Shown here piece after piece: positions 35,555 to 45,928 of a stretch of DNA of 64,000 nt. The position numbers were made by a program, and so were the translations under genes. Position 1 is the stretch's first letter; each line of letters begins with the position of its first letter. The notes beneath the pieces are model-generated. The model did not search any database and had not been told where the DNA came from. It worked only from the letters and a program-made list of their open reading frames with translations. Where the stretch lies: contig CAWFAK010000017.1 of NCBI GenBank assembly GCA_963813715.1, positions 640,001 through 704,000 on the forward strand, given 5' to 3'. Source of the DNA: an uncultured Planctomycetaceae bacterium. Lineage in GTDB: Bacteria; Planctomycetota; Planctomycetia; Planctomycetales; Planctomycetaceae.

Positions 35555-36830
35555 ATGCGGATCACACTCGACTACGGCAAAACGGGCATGGAAGTGGAAG
35601 TCCCGGACCGAAATTTGGTCGGTCCGCTGGGACTGCGGCCGGTCGAGCCGCTGGCCGATCCGGCCGGTAAATTGGCCGAGTCACTCGCCCACCCGATCGG
35701 GTCGGCGCCGCTGGTGGAATTGGCCCGCGGACGGAAGTCGGCGTGCGTCCTAATCTGCGACATTACGCGGCCCGTGCCGAATGAATTTCTGTTGCGCCAG
35801 ATCCTGCCCACGCTCGAGCGCGGCGGCATCCCGCGGGAAAATATCCTGATCCTGATCGCCACCGGCTTGCACCGGCCCAACGAGGGCGATGAGCTCGTCG
35901 AGTTGGTCGGAGCGGAAATCGCCGCCAATTATCGCGTCGAAAATCATGACGGTCGCAACCTGTGCCGAGCATGCCAACCTGGGCATGTCGCCGCGCGGCG
36001 TCCCCGTGTGGATCGATCGCCGCTATGTCGAAGCCGATCTCAAAATCGCCACCGGCCTGATCGAACCGCACCTGATGGCCGGTTACTCCGGCGGCCGCAA
36101 GCTGATCTGCCCGGGCATCGCGGCCCTCGAAACGGTGCAGTGCTGGCACGGTCCCGCTTTCCTCGAGCATCCACGGGCCGACTGCGGCATCCTCGAAGGG
36201 AATCCCGTCCACGAAGAGAACACGCGAATCGCCCGCATGGCTGGCTGCGATTTCATTGTGAACGTCTCGCTCGACAACGATCGCCGCGTGACCTCGCTCG
36301 TAGCCGGCGACATGGAGGCCGCCTTCGCCAAGGGAGTCGAGTTCGTCGAGTCGGTCTGCAAGGCACCCGTTCCCGAGGCGTGCGACGTGGTGGTCACCTC
36401 GAGCGCCGGCTATCCGCTCGACACGACGTTTTACCAGGCGATCAAAGGGCTCACCGGCGTGCTGCCCATCGTCAAACAGGGCGGCACCATCGTGATCGCC
36501 GCAGCCCTCGATCAGGGGATCGGCAGCCCAGAATTTCGCAGCCTGTTTAGCGAGAATGCCGATCTCGACACCTTCATGCGGCGAATCATGGGGAAAGACT
36601 ATTTCGTGCTCGACCAGTGGCAGCTGGAAAAGCTGGGCCACGTCTGCCGCAAGGCTCGTCCGCGGTTCGTCACGCAGGGCCTCAATCCCGCAACGATGAA
36701 GGGCCTCTTCGTCGACTCTGTCCCCAGCGTCGAGCAGGCGATTGCCGAGGCGCTGACGGAATACGGCCCGAACGCCCGCATCGCAGTGGTGCCGAAGGGC
36801 CCGTACGTGCTGCCGGTCGTGGCGGCGTGA
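35555..36830 (+). CDS. larA: LarA-family nickel-pincer racemase/epimerase, frameshift near 35960
   Basis: [46 protein letters not shown]. Confidence 0.85.
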
Positions 36831-36999: not shown

Positions 37000-37077
37000 G
37001 AAAACGCCCCGGTGACGTGGTTGCACACGGCAACGGGGCTGACCAAAACCTCGCTTAATAGGAGCAAGGCATGGCTA
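37000..37077 (-). ncRNA. Predicted cis-antisense RNA covering the recombinase RBS and start codon
   Basis: Minus-strand promoter TCGACA(37111-37106)-17bp-CAGAAT(37088-37083); hairpin 37006-37039 followed by T-run on minus strand. Confidence 0.45.
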
Positions 37078-38177
37078 CGGCCATTCTGGGGGCTGCTCGC
37101 CCCACTGTCGAGCGGTCACGCTCGCCCCAATTCGTTCGCGTGCGGTGTTGTGCCCGATTGCTTGGGGTCTGTGTCCAAACGGTGCGAAATTACGCTGACG
37201 ACCCGTCGAATAGGGTTGAGGTACGCCGCACCCCCGGTGGTCATCGATTGGTTAACCTCGCACAGATTGCCGAGTGCTTTGGGGTGGACCTGGCCACCGA
37301 TGAAACGCCGACAGAGACCGCGCGGAGGCGCCTGATAATCGGGTACTGCCGTGTGAGCACATCCAAGCAAAAAACGGCAGGGAATTTGGCTCGCCAAGCC
37401 GAGCGGGTGAAAGCCTACATCGAAGAAAACTGGCCGGGAGAAAAGTACATCATCCTTTGCGAGCAACGTTCGGGAATCTCCACTGACCGGCCGGGCTTGT
37501 TAAAAGTGCTGGACCTATCGTTGGCGTCGAAGTGCAAAATTCTGTGTGCCGAGCATCCCTGTCGGGTCAGCCGTGGGAGTTTTGCCCTAATCTCGCGCGT
37601 TCTGCAACGGTGCGGCGTGGAAATTGTGTTGACCAAAACCGGCGAGAAAGAGAACGACGCAAAATCGCAGGAAGAAGAGACGCTCCACGACGCCATGAGC
37701 ATGATTTATTGCATGCAGGCGCGGGCGTGTGGTCGCCGTGCCCACGACAAAACCCGGTTCGTCCCCACCCAAGCCTTCCGCGACCGCGTTGCTGCTCTCC
37801 ACGGGCAGGGAATGCCGGTCGCCGCAATCTTCGCGGCGATTGCTGCGGAGGGGCACCGCTGTACCAACACGGGCCGGGAAGCGACCCTGAAATCGGTGTG
37901 GCGTGTGGTCAAGGATATCGAGAGGGGTGCGCTCAACGGGGTGCCGGAATCGGTGCGGCGGTTTGTGGGGGAAGCTTGTAGGCTGTCGCCGGGGTCAACT
38001 GTCCTCACTCGTTACGTCTGGCGGGCCTTCCAAGAGTTTTGCACCACGCACGGTCTATCCCCGGTAAGCCGGAATCGGCTGCCCGCCTTCATTCGGTCGG
38101 CGGCTCCATCGGTCCAAACCCGGCTAGCGCGTCATCATGCGGACGGATTTGAATTTGTGGGGCTGGCATTGGCTTAA
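37071..38177 (+). CDS. IS607-TnpA-like serine recombinase (MerR HTH + resolvase) with C-terminal extension
   Basis: LLGVCVQTVRNY...RTPGGHR HTH, GYCRVST catalytic motif, SG...RPGL, RVSR; ~140 extra C-terminal residues. Confidence 0.85.
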   Translation: MATAILGAARPTVERSRSPQFVRVRCCARLLGVCVQTVRNYADDPSNRVEVRRTPGGHRLVNLAQIAECFGVDLATDETPTETARRRLIIGYCRVSTSKQKTAGNLARQAERVKAYIEENWPGEKYIILCEQRSGISTDRPGLLKVLDLSLASKCKILCAEHPCRVSRGSFALISRVLQRCGVEIVLTKTGEKENDAKSQEEETLHDAMSMIYCMQARACGRRAHDKTRFVPTQAFRDRVAALHGQGMPVAAIFAAIAAEGHRCTNTGREATLKSVWRVVKDIERGALNGVPESVRRFVGEACRLSPGSTVLTRYVWRAFQEFCTTHGLSPVSRNRLPAFIRSAAPSVQTRLARHHADGFEFVGLALA

Positions 38178-38201
38178 ACCCAACAATCCCTTGCCTAACC
38201 C

Positions 38202-38227
38202 GAGCCGGCTTGCTGCCGGCTCTTTTT
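38202..38227 (+). terminator. Rho-independent terminator
   Basis: gagccggc-ttgct-gccggctc followed by ttttt. Confidence 0.8.
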
Positions 38228-38332
38228 ATGGCCGCCATCGTTTAGACGATTTAGAGGTTCCACTTGACCCGGCGGGGATCCGACCCCCACCGGCCAAGTA
38301 TTGTCCGAGCCACTTGGATGCCGGAAACGTCG

Positions 38333-38430
38333 GGTCCCGTCCCGCTTCAATCCCGTCCCGTCCCAGGCAAACGGACAATCGAAGTCTGGACGAATCTGTC
38401 GGGATCCGCTCGATAAAACAACGTGTCCCG
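38333..38430. repeat. GTCCC-rich repeat, copy 1 (left part, interrupted by transposon)
   Basis: Tandem gtcccgtccc units, caaacgga, then tcgggatccgctcgataaaacaacgtgtcccg. Confidence 0.8.
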
Positions 38431-38453
38431 GGCTTTGCACAACGGAACGCATT

Positions 38454-39740
38454 TTAGCCGATCTGTTGTGCAATCCTCAGACTCGTTGTGCAGACCGGGG
38501 CGGATGCGAAGTCGGGCTGAATCCCAAGCTCGTGCATGGCGTGGATCAGTACGCTCAGATTGTGGCAGAGGATTTTCGCCAGCACTTCGTTCTTCATGGC
38601 GAGTTTGGTGCGGCTGCGAACCGCGTCCCCGAACTTGGCCTTAATTGCTCCGATTGCCGCCTCAATGTTGCTCCGCTTGTGGTAATGCCGCAGGAACTCT
38701 TCGCGGTGCAGGCTGAAGTAGTGGAAAGCCTTGGCGTACAGTCCGCCTACTGCCCCGGTTGTGCCTTGTCGAAACGGGATGTAGGTGCTCGCGTTGTGCT
38801 TGGCGATTGCCTCAAAGTTTGCCGTGCTGGCGTACTGCCGGTCTGCTGAGATTTCCGACACGTCGAAGTTCTTGGCGGTCGCGTCTAAGAGCACCGGCAA
38901 GAGCGGGCTGTCATTCGTGCAGCGCTCGTGAATCTCCACCGCTGTCACGACGTGGGTGGTCACGCCGATCATCAGGTGCGCTTTTACCCAGTCGGTTTCC
39001 TTCCGCTCGCCACCGCACGGGCCGTACTTGTGGTCATACCAGCGATAGAAGCGGCTGGCCGTGAAGCCAGTCGAGTCAGCCGCGAAGTCGCATTCAATCG
39101 CGGTCAGCGGCAGGCTGCTTTTGACGATTAGTTCGCGGAGAACTTCCGTCATGCGTTCGTCGTCAAGGTGATTGAAGATTGAGTTGAAGTGCGGAACGCA
39201 GCCGATGTGCCCCTTGGCGTGCGCGTTGCGTAGGTCCGACATAAAGCGCCGCCCCGACAACGTGCTGTAGACCTTGAAGCAGCAAGCGAACACTGCGTCA
39301 CACAACGGAATGCGGTGCTGTCCGCGACCCTTTTGCGGTTCTTCTACGATCCCCTCGCACAACGCAGCCAAGAGCGATTGGAATGTATCCTTCTCGCTGG
39401 TCTGGGCGCGGTTGTACGCGGGCCACTGCTGCGGATAGCTCTTGCGGACGATCCTCTCTTCGACCGTCACGCTTTCCGTAACGGTCTCCGACCCATCCGC
39501 GAACAATTCCCTTTGTCGCACGATTCGCACGGCCAAAATGTGTTTGCAGGTGCAGCCGCGAAGCTCGAAATCGGGGCAGGTGCAGTGAGGCGACTGATCG
39601 TCAGGATCGACCTTGTATCGCTTCTCGCCCGGCAACGATTGAGACGAGACGTACCACTGGTGTCCGATCTGCACGATCTTTTGCGTTGCCGCCAAGATCA
39701 TTGCCCGGTTTTCACGGTCCAGCAATTTCCAGTCTGTCAT
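38454..39740 (-). CDS. DDE transposase (IS903-like) with N-terminal SWIM zinc finger
   Basis: CTCPDF...CKH SWIM; WPAYN, ADSTG, SADRQY, YHKRSNIE...K.KFG motifs. Confidence 0.85.
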   Translation of the reverse strand: MTDWKLLDRENRAMILAATQKIVQIGHQWYVSSQSLPGEKRYKVDPDDQSPHCTCPDFELRGCTCKHILAVRIVRQRELFADGSETVTESVTVEERIVRKSYPQQWPAYNRAQTSEKDTFQSLLAALCEGIVEEPQKGRGQHRIPLCDAVFACCFKVYSTLSGRRFMSDLRNAHAKGHIGCVPHFNSIFNHLDDERMTEVLRELIVKSSLPLTAIECDFAADSTGFTASRFYRWYDHKYGPCGGERKETDWVKAHLMIGVTTHVVTAVEIHERCTNDSPLLPVLLDATAKNFDVSEISADRQYASTANFEAIAKHNASTYIPFRQGTTGAVGGLYAKAFHYFSLHREEFLRHYHKRSNIEAAIGAIKAKFGDAVRSRTKLAMKNEVLAKILCHNLSVLIHAMHELGIQPDFASAPVCTTSLRIAQQIG

Positions 39741-39783
39741 GGCCGTATCTCGTTAGTGGTGCCGTTGACTCAGCACCGTTATT

Positions 39784-39846
39784 GTAGCAATATTATTGCT
39801 ACCAACAAGAGTCGGGTTGACAGTCTCCGAATAATTTTGCTACAAA
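39784..39846. promoter_or_regulatory. Divergent promoter/operator region between transposase and small regulator
   Basis: Palindrome gtagcaat-att-attgctac (39784-39802), extra ttgctac half-site at ~39836; TTGACA (39817-39822) and TGn-TACAAA (39841-39846). Confidence 0.6.
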
Positions 39847-39853
39847 AATTCAA

Positions 39854-40060
39854 ATGGCTGGACGCCCACCAAAAGACCCGGCACAACGGATGACCACGGA
39901 TCTTCGGATTCCGGTCACTCCTGAGCAGAAGCAGCTCATCGCAGAGGCGATGGCGGCGGAAGAACGCGAATTCGCGGGATGGGCGAGAGAAGTGCTCCTG
40001 AAGCACGCCCATGCGATCGTGGATGCCCCTATAGGCAGGAAACGCCGCAAATCTACTTAG
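39854..40060 (+). CDS. Small DNA-binding protein (ribbon-helix-helix/DUF1778-like)
   Basis: 68 aa; GRPPK, LRIPVTPEQKQLIAEA, FAGWAREVLL. Confidence 0.75.
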   Translation: MAGRPPKDPAQRMTTDLRIPVTPEQKQLIAEAMAAEEREFAGWAREVLLKHAHAIVDAPIGRKRRKST

Positions 40061-40151
40061 CTTGCTAAGGATTGCGAGTTGTGGTGCATTGCGTGTGCGC
40101 ATCGGCGTTTTTGTATTTGACTGCCTCTAAACAGGACGATACAGTTCGTGT

Positions 40152-40217
40152 GGAGTTGGAGTGGGGCCTGCCCGGTCCCAATTAGACGCCTGCCCGGCGT
40201 TGCCCAACTCTTTTTTT
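40152..40217 (+). ncRNA. Predicted ~65-nt three-way-junction sRNA convergent on the DUF3800 gene
   Basis: TTGACT(40117-40122)-17bp-TACAGT(40140-40145) promoter; closing stem gagttgg/ccaactc; two hairpins each with a UGCCC loop; U7 tail. Confidence 0.6.
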
Positions 40218-40975
40218 ATTTCGAACTTTGGCAGACGACCAGTTTTCCCGAGCCGTCGTCCAACTGCCACTTTTGGATCCCAAACCGCTGGTAGCCGTTG
40301 ACCGTGCCGGACCATTCCAACGGCCGCAGCAGGTCGGTCCAAGTGCTGAATTTTTCGTCTCCGACTGCCCGCCTACCGAGAATGAACGCGCAGATATCTG
40401 CAAGCTGAATTCCGGGGGTCACGTGCGACACACCGACCAGCGGATAATGCGAAACGTTCGGCAGCCGCACGCCTGAAACAAATCTCTTGACGGCCGTCGC
40501 CATCCGTGGCTCTTGGCCACAAATCTGGCTGTCAAAGACAAGGTTAACGCGCCGTACGGGCTGACCTTGCAGGCACACGCTGACACCTTGTCGAGCACGT
40601 CGGCGAACGGACTGGCAAGCCTCTTCGTTCCGAGCCGGCTGAAGATTCCTTGCTCGCCGCGTACGATCGCTCCAAACAGCCAGATCGGATGCTTTCGGCG
40701 GTATCCCAGCAAAGTCTCGAATACGTGCTTGGTCAGGTCGTGATTTGTGGTGCTACCGAACTTCTGTGCTTGTCGGAACGATCCGTTTGATAGCAGGCGC
40801 TTCCCTTCAGCTCCTTAGTCATGTCCCTGGCGTGCTCGACCCCGAAAAACTGATACGCGCGCCTTGTAGAGCGTTAAGGCGAGCGCCGGACTGACCGGTC
40901 GTGCATGAGGCACCCGGCAATCGCCGTCGCCCCGCCGTTGCTGTCTTGGTAGGACTCATCGAAGAAACACCACAC
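40216..40975 (-). CDS. DUF3800-family (RNase H-like fold) protein, split by ~4 indels
   Basis: Reconstructed MWCFFDES...KELKG...NLVFDS...PGIQLADICAF; GTG start at 40975 with GGAG RBS. Confidence 0.75.
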
Positions 40976-41048
40976 AACTTGGACTCCGCCTTAGATGGTT
41001 TCGCAATCCCTGCCGACCAAATCACCGCGGTCACAGTTGCCGATCTCC

Positions 41049-41082
41049 AAAAACAAAAAAGCCCAGAGCCGATGCTCCGGGC
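41049..41082 (-). terminator. Rho-independent terminator upstream of the DUF3800 gene
   Basis: Minus strand gcccggagc-atcg-gctctgggc (one G-U pair) then ttttttgttttt. Confidence 0.75.
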
Positions 41083-41159
41083 GAATATGAGTCGCGTTCG
41101 GATGTGGCAATCATGCCACGTGCATCATGCACGGCCGCCTTCCTTGGCTCCTTAAATGA

Positions 41160-41260
41160 ACTCGACCGCCCTGGCTGACTGCGAGATCAAGCGGGGGCGG
41201 TCGAATCGGCCCGAGGGCCGAATGCGCATACAACAGGTTGTGTCCGCCTGATCTCGCTAT
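41160..41260 (-). ncRNA. Predicted pseudoknotted structured RNA
   Basis: 10-bp stem 41162-41171/41195-41204; its loop (gcgagatca 41181-41189) is complementary to 41249-41257; two further hairpins; promoter TTGCCA-16bp-GATAAT at 41292-41265. Confidence 0.5.
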
Positions 41261-41316
41261 CACAATTATCTCGGACAAAACCTATCTGGCAATATCTTTT
41301 TGTTCACACGCGACGA

Positions 41317-41658
41317 TTACTTTTTGTACACAAATCGTAGGCGGGGCGACTTAAGAATCTGTTCCGACAGGACGATCAGGCCAAGTGTCAGCGAGCCAGT
41401 CGAGGCTTCCCGTTCAATCCAAAATGATGTGTCCTCGGGTTTCACCTGAAGAACTACCAGACCGGTCCTCGGTGAGACCTTGGCTCTAATTCGCTCAGAC
41501 CATTCTGCTGCGGATCGTCCGGCAGGGTCATTAATGAGCCATGCGAAATTGAACCAGTGCCACCATTCCACTCGGGGTTCATCTTCCAACATTTTGGTGA
41601 TGGCGTCGCGCTCTTCTGTGGGCGCTGTGTCGTCAACGAGAACCACGAACTTACGCAC
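41317..41658 (-). CDS. Small hypothetical protein, probable ferredoxin-like fold
   Basis: KFVVLVD...EWWHWFNFAWLI...SAAEWSERI...LVVLQV; GTG start overlaps upstream stop; possible indel near 41408 giving ...DWLADTW. Confidence 0.6.
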   Translation of the reverse strand: MRKFVVLVDDTAPTEERDAITKMLEDEPRVEWWHWFNFAWLINDPAGRSAAEWSERIRAKVSPRTGLVVLQVKPEDTSFWIEREASTGSLTLGLIVLSEQILKSPRLRFVYKK

Positions 41659-42024
41659 TGGTTGCGCTCCTGTTTCGCGATTTTTCATTGACCTTTTTGC
41701 CGGCACTCTTGCGCCGCCCCTCGGTGGCCTCGCGAGTTCCGTGGAGATTGTCCCCGACCCTTGAGTTGTCTATTTCCCGAGCGCGGATCGAATGCCGATC
41801 GGACCCAGGGCGTCGCGATCGTAAATCAGCAGGTAGGCGGCCCATGCCGAGAAAAATACGACATACGCCGTGAATAGGGCGACAATCCAGATTTTAATGC
41901 TTAGTTCCGCACCCGAGACGGCAACAACCCCGGTCAGGACTGCGAGCACCGCTCCGAACCAAATCGTGGGGCTAAGCACGCTTGATCGCGGTGGATGCTT
42001 AAGAATGTCCGTAATGTTGCTCAC
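41651..42024 (-). CDS. Two-TM membrane protein, frameshift near 41805
   Basis: RSSVLSPTIW, two TM helices, YDRDAL then SDRHSI...VGDN in the next frame; start uncertain. Confidence 0.55.
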
Positions 42025-42180
42025 GGATTGTCCGACCCATTCGGCAGGCTTTCTTGTGATCGAGCGGACACGATCGTACAGCGCGGAGCGGGCGGACTGT
42101 AGTGCATCGGCGATATTGAGAATCCCCGCCCGACGTTCCGTGTGCAGCGGGGTCGGGCAGAACCGTCCCGTGGCAAAGCC

Positions 42181-42374
42181 ACGTGTCCCGTCCCAGTCCC
42201 GTCTCACCTGCGCCCGTCCAGTCTGGCGTCGAGCGCTCGGTTTGGCGTCGAATGTCCCGTCCCAATCCCGTCCCAATGTCCCGTCCCGAACAAACGGAGT
42301 CCGGACCGGCCGCGTCATCGCACCTCGCGTAGGGTTTCTCGGGATTCGCTCGACAAAACAATGTGTCCCGTCCC
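42181..42374. repeat. GTCCC-rich repeat: end of copy 1 plus copy 2
   Basis: Multiple (t)gtcccgtccc units, caaacgga, tcgggattcgctcgacaaaacaatgtgtcccgtccc. Confidence 0.8.
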
Positions 42375-43885
42375 GAATGGCACTAACTTAAGGCGTTACT
42401 TGTTTGTGGATCAGGGCTTGTTGAAGTTGGCGACGTGGTTTGTTCATGAGATCGTATTGTTTTGGTCGTCGCTTAGAGGCGCGTGGCTCGCAACGACCTG
42501 GGCGGTGGGGAACAACGATCAGATTTCTGGGGGCCGCGTTGAGCGGGGCATGGCAGAGTCGTCGTTGGGCGTCGATGAAGCTGGTCCGAGTCACCGGCAC
42601 GCGCTGGCGTTTTGCCGAACGCAGCATCACGCAGCGCACCAGATTGTAAACGATGGCGAACATGGCCAGCTCTTTGTGAATCCCGTCGACTGTTTTGGTG
42701 CGCAGCACGTCCATGCGGAGCGTTTGTTTCAGATGCCTGAGATTCGTCTCGATCTGCCAGCGATTCAGATAGAGGTTGGCCAGTTCGACGGCCGGGTAAC
42801 GTCGTTGATCCAAGAGCGTCGTCACGAGGGTCACCTGGCGGACTCGAAACCCCCGTTGAGTGATGCGATAGCGCAGCTCCCGTAGGAGCAGGGATTCGGG
42901 CAGCCGTGCGAAGTCTTCCGGGGTGATCCACGATGGCCGTTGGGTCGGTTTGAACGCCTCGACGATTTGATCGTGTCGGCCCAGCGACTGGACCCAGCGG
43001 GACGTCGGTTGTCCCTTCACGCGTGGGACATTCTTCGCACGCTTCTGCGGCGAGTAAGGCCGCCTTTTTTGGAAGTTGACGATCGTCGCTTGATGGATGC
43101 GAAACACAGCAAAAACGCCGGCTAAATTGAGCAGTGCCAGATGTGCGTAGGAGCAGAATCCCCGATCGCCGACGACCACGTCGTTCGGCTGAAAGGCCTC
43201 GTGCACGCGCTGAACCCGCGACAGGTCATGCGACCGCAAAGGAGCTGGCAGCACCCGCAAGAGAAAGCCAGTGCTGGCATCAAACAGTGTCAGGAGACGG
43301 GCCACCGGAAATCCACAGCCGGGCCGCTGAGCCCCCGATTGCCCGAAGGCCTCCTGCAGCGAGGGTGTGTCGGGCATCGAACAGGCAGAACCATCCACGT
43401 GCCAAAGACGATGACCTCGCCAGCAGTTAGGCACTTGCGCACCAACAGCACGCGCCACCCCCTCCATCAGCCGTTGGAAGAGTTCCAGCGGCAATCGCGC
43501 GCGGGCCTTGCAGTAGGCCTCGCCGGTGACATCCAGATCCAGGAGATGGGGCACGTGATCACAGGCGATGTTGCCCGCCAAGACCTGCCGCAGGAACGCA
43601 TAGACGGTGGTGATCGGATTGAGTGTGCAGTCGCGCCACACGTGATTGAGTTCGCGACAGATCTGCTCGATCCGCTCGGGCGAAAGCGCCTCGGTCACAT
43701 CCCCCTTGACCTGCTCCAAAACAGACTCGATAAATGGCGCCATCCTTGGCCTCCTGTGGAAATGAGTCGTTTAGCAACCTCATTCTCGCAGGAGGCCGGG
43801 ATTCCTCAGAGACGCATTCCGTCACGCTCCTCACCCGACATAAACTTCCAACTGCCAACTCCTTCCGGCTTGAGTTAGTGCATTC
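42375..43885 (-). mobile_element. IS4-family insertion sequence
   Basis: TIRs gaatggcactaacttaag / cttgagttagtgcattc; 11-bp duplication tgtcccgtccc at 42364-42374 and 43886-43896. Confidence 0.92.
42388..43743 (-). CDS. IS4-family DDE transposase
   Basis: AYCKARARL, VDGS, GDRGF, Y..RWQIE...R.LK (YREK) motif. Confidence 0.93.
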   Translation of the reverse strand: MAPFIESVLEQVKGDVTEALSPERIEQICRELNHVWRDCTLNPITTVYAFLRQVLAGNIACDHVPHLLDLDVTGEAYCKARARLPLELFQRLMEGVARAVGAQVPNCWRGHRLWHVDGSACSMPDTPSLQEAFGQSGAQRPGCGFPVARLLTLFDASTGFLLRVLPAPLRSHDLSRVQRVHEAFQPNDVVVGDRGFCSYAHLALLNLAGVFAVFRIHQATIVNFQKRRPYSPQKRAKNVPRVKGQPTSRWVQSLGRHDQIVEAFKPTQRPSWITPEDFARLPESLLLRELRYRITQRGFRVRQVTLVTTLLDQRRYPAVELANLYLNRWQIETNLRHLKQTLRMDVLRTKTVDGIHKELAMFAIVYNLVRCVMLRSAKRQRVPVTRTSFIDAQRRLCHAPLNAAPRNLIVVPHRPGRCEPRASKRRPKQYDLMNKPRRQLQQALIHKQVTP

Positions 43886-44272
43886 TGTCCCGTCCCAACC
43901 TCAAGGGGTCAGGTCCCAACCTCGAAGCCCCGTCTCGGCTTGCTGGGGATCCTGCGACTCCCTATGTGAAAAAGGATCCCCACCACCAGCAAACCGTCCC
44001 CTTCTTGTCCCGGCTCGCGTTTTTTGCCGGCGGACCGTCGGTGACCACGGTCCAGCTGCTGGCGGGGACATCCGCTCTTCGAGGTCGTGACTCGGACTAG
44101 GCCGCCAGCGCGCTCCGGGAGCGCGAGCGGAGGAGGTCCGCTTCACTCGATTCTGACAGGGTCGGCCAACGGGAAGAAGATCGCGTTTCTAGATCCGTAG
44201 AAACAACGCGCGAAATTGTCGGGCGGGGATTCAGGGAAGCGTCGTCGAGTCCGCAGGCCTGCGGTCGCGAAT

Positions 44273-45928
44273 TCAGTAGGCGTCCGGCACGGGTTCCGAC
44301 TTCTTGCGGTATTGACGCGTCGGCTTGTATTTGGCGTCGGGCAGCGTTTCGTAATCGACGACTCCGACGCGATTGGCCCACGCTTGCCACATGGCCTTCA
44401 GGCGGCGCACGTCATCCGGGCGCTGGGCGGCCAGGTCGTGCGTCTCCGGGCGATCGGCCTTCAGGTCGTAGAGCTGCCATGGCTGGCGGAACTGGGCGAC
44501 GAGTTTCAGATCGCCGTCGCGGATCGCACGGTTTCCCTCGTGCTCCCAGGCGAGCGTGCGAGGGACCGGCGCACGGCCTTCGAGCACAGGCACAAGGCTC
44601 ACTCCCTCCAGCGGCTTCAGCGTGCGTTCCTGAAAAACCTTCGGATATTCGACGTGCGCCAGCTCCAGACAGGTGGGCATCAGGTCGATGACGTGCCCGA
44701 CTTGTGACGTCCACGAACCCGGGTGCTTGATCATCCCGGGCCACGAGATGATCAACGGAGTCGAGATGCCCCCTTCGTGGACCCACATCTTGTGCTCGCG
44801 AAACGGCGTGTTGGCCGCGTTGGCCCAGCCGACTTCGAGGCAACGGTGCGATTCGGCGGTGCCGGTGACGCTTCCCGGTTTGTGCCCGCGCTTGGGATCG
44901 GGATAGGAGTCGAGCGCCTCGGCGCTAGCCCCGTTATCGGAGAAAAAAATCACGACCGTGTTCTCCGTCAGACCGGCTTGCCGAATCTCGTCCAGCACGC
45001 GGGCGATCCCGCGGTCGAGGCATTCGATCATTGCGGCATACACCGACATCCGCAGGTCCCACTCGTTCCGGTCGGCGGCCGGCGTCGCGTCCCAGGCCTT
45101 GGCGATCGGATCGCGCGGCGACAGATTCCATTGCGGATCGATCAGGCCCAACGATTTTTCCCGCGCGAATCGCTGCTTGCGCAATTCGTCCCAACCGGTT
45201 TTGTAGGTGCCGCGATGGCGATCGATGTCCGTCGGGTGCGCCTGCAACGGAAAATGCGGCGCCGTGAAACACAGGTGCAAGAAGAACGGGCGCCCGGCGT
45301 TTTCGCGCTGGTGCTGCCGGATCGCTTCCACGCCCCAATTTGCAAAGACGTCGGTGGCGTAGAAGCCGGGCCACGGCTGAATTTCTGTCAAATCGTCGTA
45401 GAGGGGATAGAGCTTGAAATAGTTGCCCCCGCCTCCCGTGCCGTGCGCATGATCGAAACCGCGATGGATCGGGTGGTTCCGCTGATCCTTCTGACCCACG
45501 CCTCCCACGTGCCATTTCCCGACGTGATACGTGCGATAGCCGTTCGCTTTAAGCAGTTCGGCGATCGTGGCACACTCTTCGTTGAGCCCGTGCGTGTAGC
45601 CGGGCGGGTGCCAGTCTTCGAGCATATGCCCAACACCCGCTTCGTGCGGATAAAGTCCGGTGAGGATCGCCGCCCGGCTCGGGCAGCAGCGGGCACAGTT
45701 GTAAAACTGCTTGAAGCGAATGCCGTTTTCCGCCAGGCGATCGAGCTCGCGCGTGCTGACCTCAGAGCCGTAGCAGCCGAGGTCGGAGAACCCCATGTCG
45801 TCCGCCACGATCATCACGATGTTGGGCCGCGGCTTGACCGGCTGCTCCTTGATCTGGGTCGTGCCGTTCAGCACGGCCAGCGCCATCACGCCGCCGGAGA
45901 TGACACGCAGCAAATAGGTCGGTAACAC
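44273..45928 (-). CDS. Arylsulfatase (Cys-type, formylglycine dependent)
   Basis: RPNIV.IVADDMG, CCPSRAAILTG, GKWH, APHFP, SDNG. Confidence 0.93.
   Translation of the reverse strand: MLPTYLLRVISGGVMALAVLNGTTQIKEQPVKPRPNIVMIVADDMGFSDLGCYGSEVSTRELDRLAENGIRFKQFYNCARCCPSRAAILTGLYPHEAGVGHMLEDWHPPGYTHGLNEECATIAELLKANGYRTYHVGKWHVGGVGQKDQRNHPIHRGFDHAHGTGGGGNYFKLYPLYDDLTEIQPWPGFYATDVFANWGVEAIRQHQRENAGRPFFLHLCFTAPHFPLQAHPTDIDRHRGTYKTGWDELRKQRFAREKSLGLIDPQWNLSPRDPIAKAWDATPAADRNEWDLRMSVYAAMIECLDRGIARVLDEIRQAGLTENTVVIFFSDNGASAEALDSYPDPKRGHKPGSVTGTAESHRCLEVGWANAANTPFREHKMWVHEGGISTPLIISWPGMIKHPGSWTSQVGHVIDLMPTCLELAHVEYPKVFQERTLKPLEGVSLVPVLEGRAPVPRTLAWEHEGNRAIRDGDLKLVAQFRQPWQLYDLKADRPETHDLAAQRPDDVRRLKAMWQAWANRVGVVDYETLPDAKYKPTRQYRKKSEPVPDAY

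Follow-up and report, generated by a model that had tools for sequence, protein, structure and literature searches.

A SWIM zinc finger IS903-like transposase on a probable unit transposon with exchangeable cargo in a Planctomycetaceae genome

We analyzed a stretch of 64,000 nucleotides, hereafter the window, from the genome of an uncultured Planctomycetaceae bacterium (contig CAWFAK010000017.1, positions 640,001 to 704,000), in which an original prediction made from the DNA letters had placed a cargo transposon with a SWIM zinc finger transposase. The segment in question, window 38431-42180, spans 3,750 bp and is very probably a unit transposon, that is, an insertion sequence (IS) with passengers, from a very large family akin to the IS903 group (IS5 family). 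New here are the same chassis found with different cargo in two copies and exact homing into species-specific repeats. The family has thousands of members in at least six bacterial phyla. A load of 1-5 kb of variable genes is routine in it, and many of these genes are parts of restriction-modification or toxin-antitoxin systems, which makes the family a probable carrier of accessory and defence genes among soil bacteria. IS903-type elements are the textbook one-gene insertion sequences; here, the same kind of enzyme comes with a zinc finger and extra end boxes.

Two copies in one genome share ends and transposase around different cargo

A DNA search of the element's own genome returned a second copy on another contig, C5. 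Its near end and transposase match window 38431-39745 at 86.7% identity, and the final 47 bp of the far end are likewise common to both copies. The C5 copy has ACGTGTCCCG on both flanks, and its far end, which contains three direct TGCACAAC boxes, lies 2.6 kb beyond its transposase. Between the shared parts, we found 2,388 bp in the window versus ~2,600 bp in C5, and these were unrelated DNA: the two cargoes gave no blastn match, and the window cargo proteins gave no tblastn match in the C5 cargo. The latter encodes a 417-amino acid (aa) nSTAND/AAA ATPase and small open reading frames (ORFs) with hydrophobic stretches. Because the second copy has the same chassis and an unrelated cargo, the intervening DNA is exchangeable. 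The chassis thus consists of the near end and transposase (1,315 bp) plus 47 bp of far end, and all that lies between is cargo. As expected of passenger genes, sequence comparison places different cargo inside the same ends in two copies of one chassis.

The C5 transposase has four indels relative to that of the window and is read with stops. Hence, in the window copy, the enzyme is whole and one end is damaged, whereas the C5 copy has good ends and a broken enzyme, and the window enzyme might move the C5 copy in trans. A third far end, on contig C4, has three boxes and abuts the same 10-mer ACGTGTCCCG; no near end for it was found within 12 kb. Transposase-less ends of the SWIM type were also noted in this genome at C4:50560-50618 (the solo far end, at the same target), C8:666445, C9:18024, 18843 and 19145, and C16:110694. 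They include a second end subfamily (GGCTTTGCACAAAAACGCCCGTTTGCACAA..) in other repeats, and they may be remnants or non-autonomous elements.

All coordinates of the original prediction for the window copy were verified. The exact 10-mer ACGTGTCCCG flanks the element on both sides (38421-38430 and 42181-42190) and adjoins precisely the inverted tips GGCTTTGC (38431-38438) and GCAAAGCC (42173-42180). It occurs exactly twice in the window, and two or more copies arose in 0 of 100 shuffles; this window-level statistic overstates the case, because the 10-mer is part of a repeat with about 100 copies in the genome. The predicted recurrence of a subterminal motif was likewise correct at every position. 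GTTGTGCA lies at 38436-38443 (minus strand), 38465-38472 and 38485-38492, and a near match, cgttccgtgtgca, lies in the right end at 42134-42146. These three copies are the only ones in the window and all fall within the left 62 bp of the element. Their clustering is the notable part, since their number alone is not above chance (three or more in 22 of 100 shuffles). The two subterminal boxes are inverted relative to the terminal box. Both inner boxes also encode the last codons of the transposase (..CTTSLRIAQQ.., window 38457-38495). In an alignment, the C-T...A-Q pattern is kept at the C-terminus of relatives, and therefore box sequence and protein tail constrain each other.

Aligned to the far ends of C5 and C4, the three far-end boxes of the window copy are short by 7, 2 and 1 bp, and only GCAAAGCC (42173-42180) is intact. 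This degeneracy is why the two tips of the window copy match over only 8 bases. When the window left end was compared with the C5 far end instead, 17 of 20 positions matched (hand count), that is, a terminal inverted repeat of the IS903-group kind (~18-20 bp, starting with GGCTTTG). The 7-bp loss is unlikely to be an assembly indel. Since its right end is without its repeated boxes, the window copy is probably immobile in cis, as judged from sequence.

An IS903-like transposase with an N-terminal SWIM domain

Pfam identified two domains in the transposase, namely SWIM at residues 42-71 (E 4.5e-6; 26.5 bits against a cut-off of 19.6) and DDE_Tnp_1 at residues 218-395 (E 2.2e-19). Across 66 aligned relatives, C53, C55, C65 and H67 of the SWIM finger were invariant, as were the catalytic residues D222, D300 and E360 together with Y353, R356 and K367, in a Y-2-R-3-E-6-K signature. 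The motifs announced as WxxYN, DSTG and YHxRS were found as WPAYN, DSTG and YHKRS, and they are common to the transposase of IS17 from an Acinetobacter plasmid. The best NCBIfam model was transpos_IS5_2 (NF033579), with 106.6 bits, under its cut-off of 140. The 310-aa IS17 enzyme aligned at 23% identity (E 6e-15) from WPAYNRA through DSTG and YH(R/K)RS. Because IS17 residue 14 aligns to residue 106 here, the SWIM part is an N-terminal addition of ~92 residues, close to the ~95 aa of the original prediction. The predicted structure (predicted local distance difference test score, 80.8) consists of a compact domain (residues 1-80), a disordered linker (84-103) and the DDE core. A Foldseek search with this structure returned generic DDE transposases only, with the lowest E-values to the ISCth4 transposase and the best TM-score to the Tn5 transposase (TMq 0.41), and it was silent on SWIM.

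Relatives in other genomes are cargo-bearing elements of 2.7-6.5 kb

Among 8,000 candidates scored, 5,735 were relatives of the transposase at E≤1e-5. Most of the 120 relatives listed were ~400-460 aa long, with a few shorter partials, and they go by no other source names than "transposase" or "SWIM zinc finger". When one genome per species was scanned, 537 loci were confirmed; the 80 that were kept come from Planctomycetota, Acidobacteriota, Alphaproteobacteria, Verrucomicrobiota, Chloroflexota, Deinococcota and others. Their boundaries were sought with a script requiring GGCTTTGC upstream and GCAAAGCC downstream (≤1 mismatch) and a matching 9-mer outside. In this way, 43 of the 80 loci were bounded by tips and a 9-bp repeat (an exact 9-mer in 41), at lengths of 2,667-6,514 bp. 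In controls, a displaced 9-mer bounded 1, 0 and 0 of 80 loci, and cross-paired loci gave 2, 0 and 1 of 80. The 37 unbounded loci had contig ends or divergent tips or were 10-bp cases (e.g., L044, L072, L106). None of the 43 bounded elements consisted of the transposase alone. The idea of a unit transposon whose ends lie far from its transposase was thus borne out in relatives, and the check proposed with it, on the ends, duplications and cargo of homologues, returned no cargo-free, short-ended homologue among the 43.

The layout of the boxes was conserved among 45 elements compared. Far-end boxes were all direct and lay at positions 6, 24 and 44; 13 elements had three of them and 12 had two. 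Near-end boxes lay at 6 (direct), ~35 and ~55 (inverted, or the last one direct), with three boxes in 18 elements and two in 9. As a control, 88 of 90 internal segments had none. The near end of the window copy has its boxes at 6, 34 and 54 (direct, inverted, inverted), a pattern also seen in 12 of the 45.

The cargo was highly variable: blastp grouped the 187 ORFs of at least 60 aa in the 43 bounded elements into 156 clusters, of which the largest had five members. In three runs, Pfam put a name to 31 of 144, 7 of 30 and 10 of 22 cargo ORFs. Eco57I/MmeI-type and other N6 methylases were found (L036, L047, L068, L072, L098), as well as a C5 methylase with Vsr (L099), RloB with AAA_21 (L027), SocA/Panacea antitoxins (five loci) and an IrrE-type peptidase with a helix-turn-helix domain (three loci). 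HipA, RelE, a protein kinase, nested insertion sequences, STAND/AAA ATPases and many unknowns were present too. A small ORF of up to 160 aa lay within 300 bp upstream of the transposase in 28 of the 43 elements; it was DUF6471 in five and a ribbon-helix-helix (RHH) protein in others.

The flanking duplication, the host repeat and alternative origins

The flanking 10-mer belongs to a ~45-bp repeat, with consensus ..TTTCTCGGTGAAACAACGTGTCCCGTCCC, which is abundant in the genome: we counted 104 exact copies of the 10-mer and 118 matches to a 16-mer within 2 mismatches. The repeat, which has a variant, ..GAAACAAAGTGTCCCGACCC, is present ~100-190 times, mostly in same-orientation arrays, and its sequence diverges right after GTCCCGTCCC. 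Within the window, it covers 38333-38430, 42181-42375 and 43886-43916, and the copy in the left flank of the element is 91% identical to 42339-42370. We considered and rejected the possibility that the repeat is a gene-start module. ORFs from its GTG had a median of 50 codons versus 42.5 and 38.5 in the other frames (n=124), and they looked like low-complexity translations, which gave no support for such a module.

The original prediction had called for an empty site with a single copy of the 10-mer, and we looked for one in the same genome and in metagenome contigs. A paralogous, uninterrupted pair of repeat units (C17:620693-621022), which reads ..CGATAAAACAACGTGTCCCGTCCCAGTC.., gave a contiguous match to the left flank (79%) and the right flank (73%). 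It contains ACGTGTCCCG once, followed by TCCCAGTC, as predicted for an empty site. Among the metagenome contigs, which are short, stem from mixed communities and in most runs hold short parts only, record 18 of soil metagenome X3 (219 nt) reads CGCTCGATAAAACA, the last 14 bases of the left flank, and then 42181-42374. Record 22 of X6 (42 nt) reads 38397-38430 and then TCCCAGTC. A joint in X1, 38430>42356, was rejected as an empty site, since it reflects the repeat. The check was therefore answered in part: the single 10-mer was found at the paralogous site and in two short contigs, but another X3 contig runs from the left flank into other DNA.

That contig, X3 record 12 (473 nt), belongs to a series of observations that weigh against an insertion. 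It matches 38268-38430 exactly and continues with other DNA (TCCCGTGTCCCGCCCGCG..) rather than the right flank, so that in the X3 population, the two flanks are not simply adjacent. A simple joint of left and right flank was seen only in the 42-nt contig and in the one with 14 left-flank bases. Since the 10-mer sits in a repeat of ~100 copies, the same picture could arise by recombination at the repeat. The two tips of the window copy agree over their 8 terminal bases only, and the duplication measures 10 bp, the family norm being 9 bp. Both neighbors of the element are themselves mobile elements. Finally, a nearby LarA-like gene is split as well, so that some of the frameshifts in our calls may stem from indels in the assembly. 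The duplication had been predicted with correct coordinates, and the short tip match and the repeat qualify the weight that it can carry.

If the flanking ACGTGTCCCG were the core of a host repeat, the segment could have been placed, or its flanks rearranged, by site-specific or homologous recombination between repeat copies. The abundance and common orientation of these copies, the identical flank at all three ends in the genome, the left flank that runs into different DNA in X3, and a duplication of 10 bp instead of 9 bp would all fit. We nevertheless regard this origin as very unlikely, given that 41 of the 43 bounded relatives are flanked by an exact 9-mer whose sequence is unrelated and that the duplication abuts the GGCTTTGC/GCAAAGCC tips exactly. 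Moreover, the 11-bp duplication of an IS4-like neighbor, TGTCCCGTCCC, lies in another register of this repeat, a pattern that agrees with two transposases rather than a single recombinase core. It is hardly credible, on the other hand, that the transposase belongs to an ordinary insertion sequence of ~1.4 kb, with the GCAAAGCC at 42173-42180 being there by chance or as the solo end of a different copy and the 2.4 kb of "cargo" being host DNA. Such an origin would account for a right end that matches the left over 8 bases only and lacks boxes, and for cargo ORFs that are orphan or broken. Yet no end-like sequence lies near the transposase start, C5 has its full three-box far end 2.6 kb past its transposase and next to the same 10-mer, the bounded relatives include none at ~1.5 kb, and the paralogous site joins both flanks directly.

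For a unit transposon, the steps of movement can be proposed by analogy. The transposase would bind the end boxes and cut at the GGC tips, and insertion would proceed with a 9-bp staggered cut (here apparently 10 bp), in a cut-and-paste manner as in IS903 and Tn5. The 10-bp duplication may represent a 9-bp cut plus a chance base, or one extra terminal base. An RHH-like gene of the window copy and a palindromic site in the divergent promoter region would probably regulate the transposase.

Target choice

In the genome studied here (G000), all three ends (3/3) lie at the same bond and in the same orientation of the repeat, between ..AAAACA and ACGTGTCCC(G)TCCC, the near end facing the AAAACA side. 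In G007, a sister genome of the same genus, two different elements follow ..GAAACAATGTGACC with the duplication CGACCCGGT, and in another sister genome, G002, one element sits at the same repeat position. In a further sister genome, G008, two elements (L126, L135) occupy one position (TTGCGCCGC; TAACGCCGC/TAGCGCCGC) of a different repeat, and some G008 copies sit outside that repeat. GAAACAANGTGNCCCGNCCC occurs in 97 copies in G000, 65 in G002, 13 in G007 and none in G008 or G011. Of the G008 repeat (..TTTTTTGCGCCGCAGAAAAACCAGAAAAATC), which forms part of a hairpin-like unit, 162 copies were counted in G008, and the four other genomes lacked it. The repeats are lineage-specific.

We tentatively propose, with rather less than even confidence, that a single-protein, SWIM-enlarged IS903-type transposase with six-box asymmetric ends picks its target, namely one exact position of the species' high-copy short repeat, in one orientation per genome. 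The repeats would be safe landing pads, and cargo would be swapped freely on a constant 1.36-kb chassis. The ~45-bp GAAACAAnGTGnCCCG repeat would then be used in three species and the unrelated 162-copy repeat in a fourth. Alternatively, repeated use of a site could reflect survival, with insertion at random and only those elements persisting that fell into harmless intergenic repeats. That no consensus target emerged across the 43 bounded relatives, and that some G008 copies lie outside its repeat, would agree with survival. We consider it unlikely, because survival alone would scatter insertions over repeats and other intergenic DNA, whereas three of three ends in the element's own genome and two of two in G007 fall at the same phosphodiester bond and orientation, one G002 element falls at the same position, and two G008 elements fall at one position of the 162-copy repeat. 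Were the SWIM domain, or a host factor on the repeat, to choose the target, we would be dealing with a minimal targeted cargo transposon. Because species-specific repeats are used so precisely and in a set orientation, target choice by a one-protein transposon can be tested directly.

Homing into repeats as a rule for the whole family was considered and rejected, as there is no common target and the target in Xanthobacteraceae is single-copy. There, three elements from three genomes (L051, L054, L056) abut CCTAAATATAGCGGCG(T/A)TATCCGC, found once in each genome; this shared target points either to inheritance of one insertion or to a locus that was used repeatedly. Five other elements (L034, L036, L062, L078, L029) sit at palindrome centers, e.g., tcccctcc-CCACAAGGG-ggagggga, and their 9-bp duplication is therefore the middle of a hairpin-forming site.

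Comparison with known systems

A search of 72,556 plasmids gave 1,230 records matching the transposase at E≤0.01, all with less than 60% identity (23-32% among the 30 listed), and no match at E≤1e-10. The matches were all IS5-family genes (IS17, ISAba13, ISVa2, ISEc28, ISEc35), and none of the 1,230 covered the SWIM part (residues 1-104). We take IS17, ISAba13 and ISVa2 to belong to the IS903 group, whose elements measure ~1-1.1 kb and have a single ~300-aa transposase and no passengers. IS17 is ~1,040 bp long, with ends GGCTTTGTTGCACAAA and GGTTTTGTTGCACAAA and a 9-bp duplication, gttggaaag. The likeness to the element here extends to GGCTTTG tips followed by a TGCACAA-type box, to a 9-bp duplication in IS17 and in the relatives, and to a single DDE_Tnp_1 transposase with WPAYN, DSTG, YH(K/R)RS and Y-2-R-3-E-6-K. 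The differences are those of size (3,750 versus ~1,040 bp), of enzyme length (428 versus 310 aa, with ~92 extra N-terminal residues that carry SWIM), of two further boxes per end, and of 2.4 kb of cargo, with at least four ORFs besides the transposase, where IS17 has no passengers.

With transporter insertion sequences and unit transposons, the element shares one transposase, terminal inverted repeats, a target duplication and passengers inside the ends. According to the accessible part of their description (10.1101/2021.05.26.445724), insertion sequences with passenger genes and unit transposons are catalogued by ISfinder and TnCentral. A search of full-text literature, which held few subscription journals and did not include ISfinder or TnCentral, returned no description of a prokaryotic SWIM domain joined to an IS5/IS903-type transposase or of such cargo elements. 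"Poorly described", as the original prediction put it, is thus a fair term, and this family of IS903-like cargo transposons is apparently uncatalogued. An IS903-like family that bears cargo as a rule is not known to us, nor did this search return one.

Mutator-like elements also have subterminal repeats, and their duplications are of 9-11 bp. In these elements (MuDR/MULE) and in the domesticated FAR1/FHY3, a DDE transposase is joined to a SWIM finger, according to the accessible part of PMC8599713. Their catalytic domain is of the Mutator/IS256 type and SWIM comes after it, whereas here DDE_Tnp_1 is preceded by an N-terminal SWIM. Indeed, Pfam finds DDE_Tnp_1 and neither Transposase_mut nor MULE in the protein, with SWIM at residues 42-71. 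Judged by domain type and order, the joining here looks like an independent fusion rather than membership in the Mutator-like elements.

Tn7-like transposons carry defence cargo and have dedicated target selectors, as stated in the accessible parts of PMC8649781 and PMC10293859, and the same parts suggest two points of likeness, variable cargo rich in defence or conflict genes and insertion at a chosen site in one orientation. Tn7 uses several proteins (TnsABC and a selector), whereas a single one on a conserved chassis is found here, and the ends, duplication length and enzyme family differ. Fixed target positions are known from insertion sequences as well. IS1397 and ISKpn1 insert in repetitive extragenic palindromes. 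The IS1202 family inserts at dif sites, according to the accessible part of PMC10132070. Like the present one, these elements insert repeatedly at one set position within a short host sequence; they differ in having other transposase families, and here, species of one genus offer different repeats, each of which is used.

Features and cargo of the window copy

The features of the window copy are collected in Table 1.

Table 1. Coordinates of the element, its flanks and its genes in the window
Feature	Position	Strand	Remark
Left flank	38399..38430	+	Last 32 bp of a copy of the ~45-bp genome-wide repeat (..TCGGGATCCGCTCGATAAAACAACGTGTCCCG)
Left duplication copy	38421-38430		Final 10 bp of left flank
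Near (left) end	38431..38492	+	Terminal box and two subterminal boxes
Terminal box GGCTTTGCACAACGGAACG	38431-38449		Near end
Transposase, 428 aa, intact	38454..39740	-	SWIM, linker and DDE core
SWIM zinc finger coding stretch, residues 42-71	39528..39617	-	
Divergent intergenic region, putative operator/promoter	39741..39853	.	TTGTAGCAA/TTGCTAC half-site repeats
68-aa RHH-like gene, putative regulator	39854..40060	+	Sub-threshold Pfam
DUF3800-family gene, probable pseudogene	40216..40990	-	Read in three frames
Terminator-like hairpin, then T run	41061..41082	-	Pattern match only
129-aa ORF, putative coding	41317..41706	-	Without relatives
Small ORF, two hydrophobic stretches (by eye in translation)	41770..42024	-	84 aa from first in-element GTG at 42024
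Far (right) end, degenerate	42134..42180	+	By comparison with C5 and C4 far ends
Right duplication copy ACGTGTCCCG	42181..42190	+	Followed by TCCC, continuing the target repeat

In the divergent intergenic region, the half-sites form an inverted pair at 39779-39797 and 39830-39848, and the homology with the C5 copy ends in the same region, at 39745. The 68-aa protein had sub-threshold Pfam matches to NikA-like (E 0.029) and TacA1 (E 0.05), and it was 36% identical over 50 aa to a NikA-like gene beside the transposase of L032. The DUF3800 assignment of the original prediction proved right by homology. The relatives listed (P0121-P0149) were 48-74% identical and 106-312 aa long, and 5 of the 29 carried PF12686; Pfam on the fragment itself gave only E 0.023. 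In tblastn, these relatives aligned to 40975-40784 in frame -1, 40883-40569 in frame -3 and 40554-40231 in frame -2. For the 129-aa ORF, the search for relatives returned the window's own protein only. For the small hydrophobic ORF, whose frame is open across the right end up to 42318, it returned the protein itself, two fragments and one 79-aa relative (37%, E 2e-4). Pfam and NCBIfam gave no match to either ORF, and PADLOC assigned no family at E≤0.01 to the five window cargo sequences. The non-coding RNAs that had been listed among the passengers were not recovered: Rfam on 37000-44500 at E≤1 gave nothing inside the element and two sub-threshold matches outside it. The cargo of the window copy is thus poor, and this copy is decayed and of little interest in itself. 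Accordingly, the notion of defence-like cargo holds for the family, with its methylases, toxin-antitoxin parts and RloB with AAA_21, but hardly for the window copy, with DUF3800 in three frames, near-orphan ORFs and an empty PADLOC result.

The LarA (lactate racemase)-like gene mentioned above, at window 35555-36830, is read in two overlapping frames (Lar_N, and the rest of Lar_N with LarA_C). Its split may be a frameshift or an assembly indel, which bears on the trust to be placed in other "pseudogenes" of this assembly.

Neighboring mobile elements

On the left of the element, window 37071-38177 (+) contains an IS607-like serine recombinase gene (NF033518 at 92 bits, under the cut-off of 110), with weak matches to the C-terminal part of P4-primase/D5. 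Just before it, at 37005-37078, lies a sub-threshold match to an R1162-like antisense RNA (33.9 bits versus 55). On the right, an IS4-family element occupies 42375-43885, with a 451-aa transposase (NF033592 at 188 bits) and ends GAATG(G)CACTAAC. Its 11-bp duplication (42364-42374 and 43886-43896) lies in the same host repeat as that of the SWIM element, in another register. At least eight ends of this IS4-like element elsewhere in the genome abut the same repeat, and a copy on C8 has inverted copies of the repeat on its flanks.

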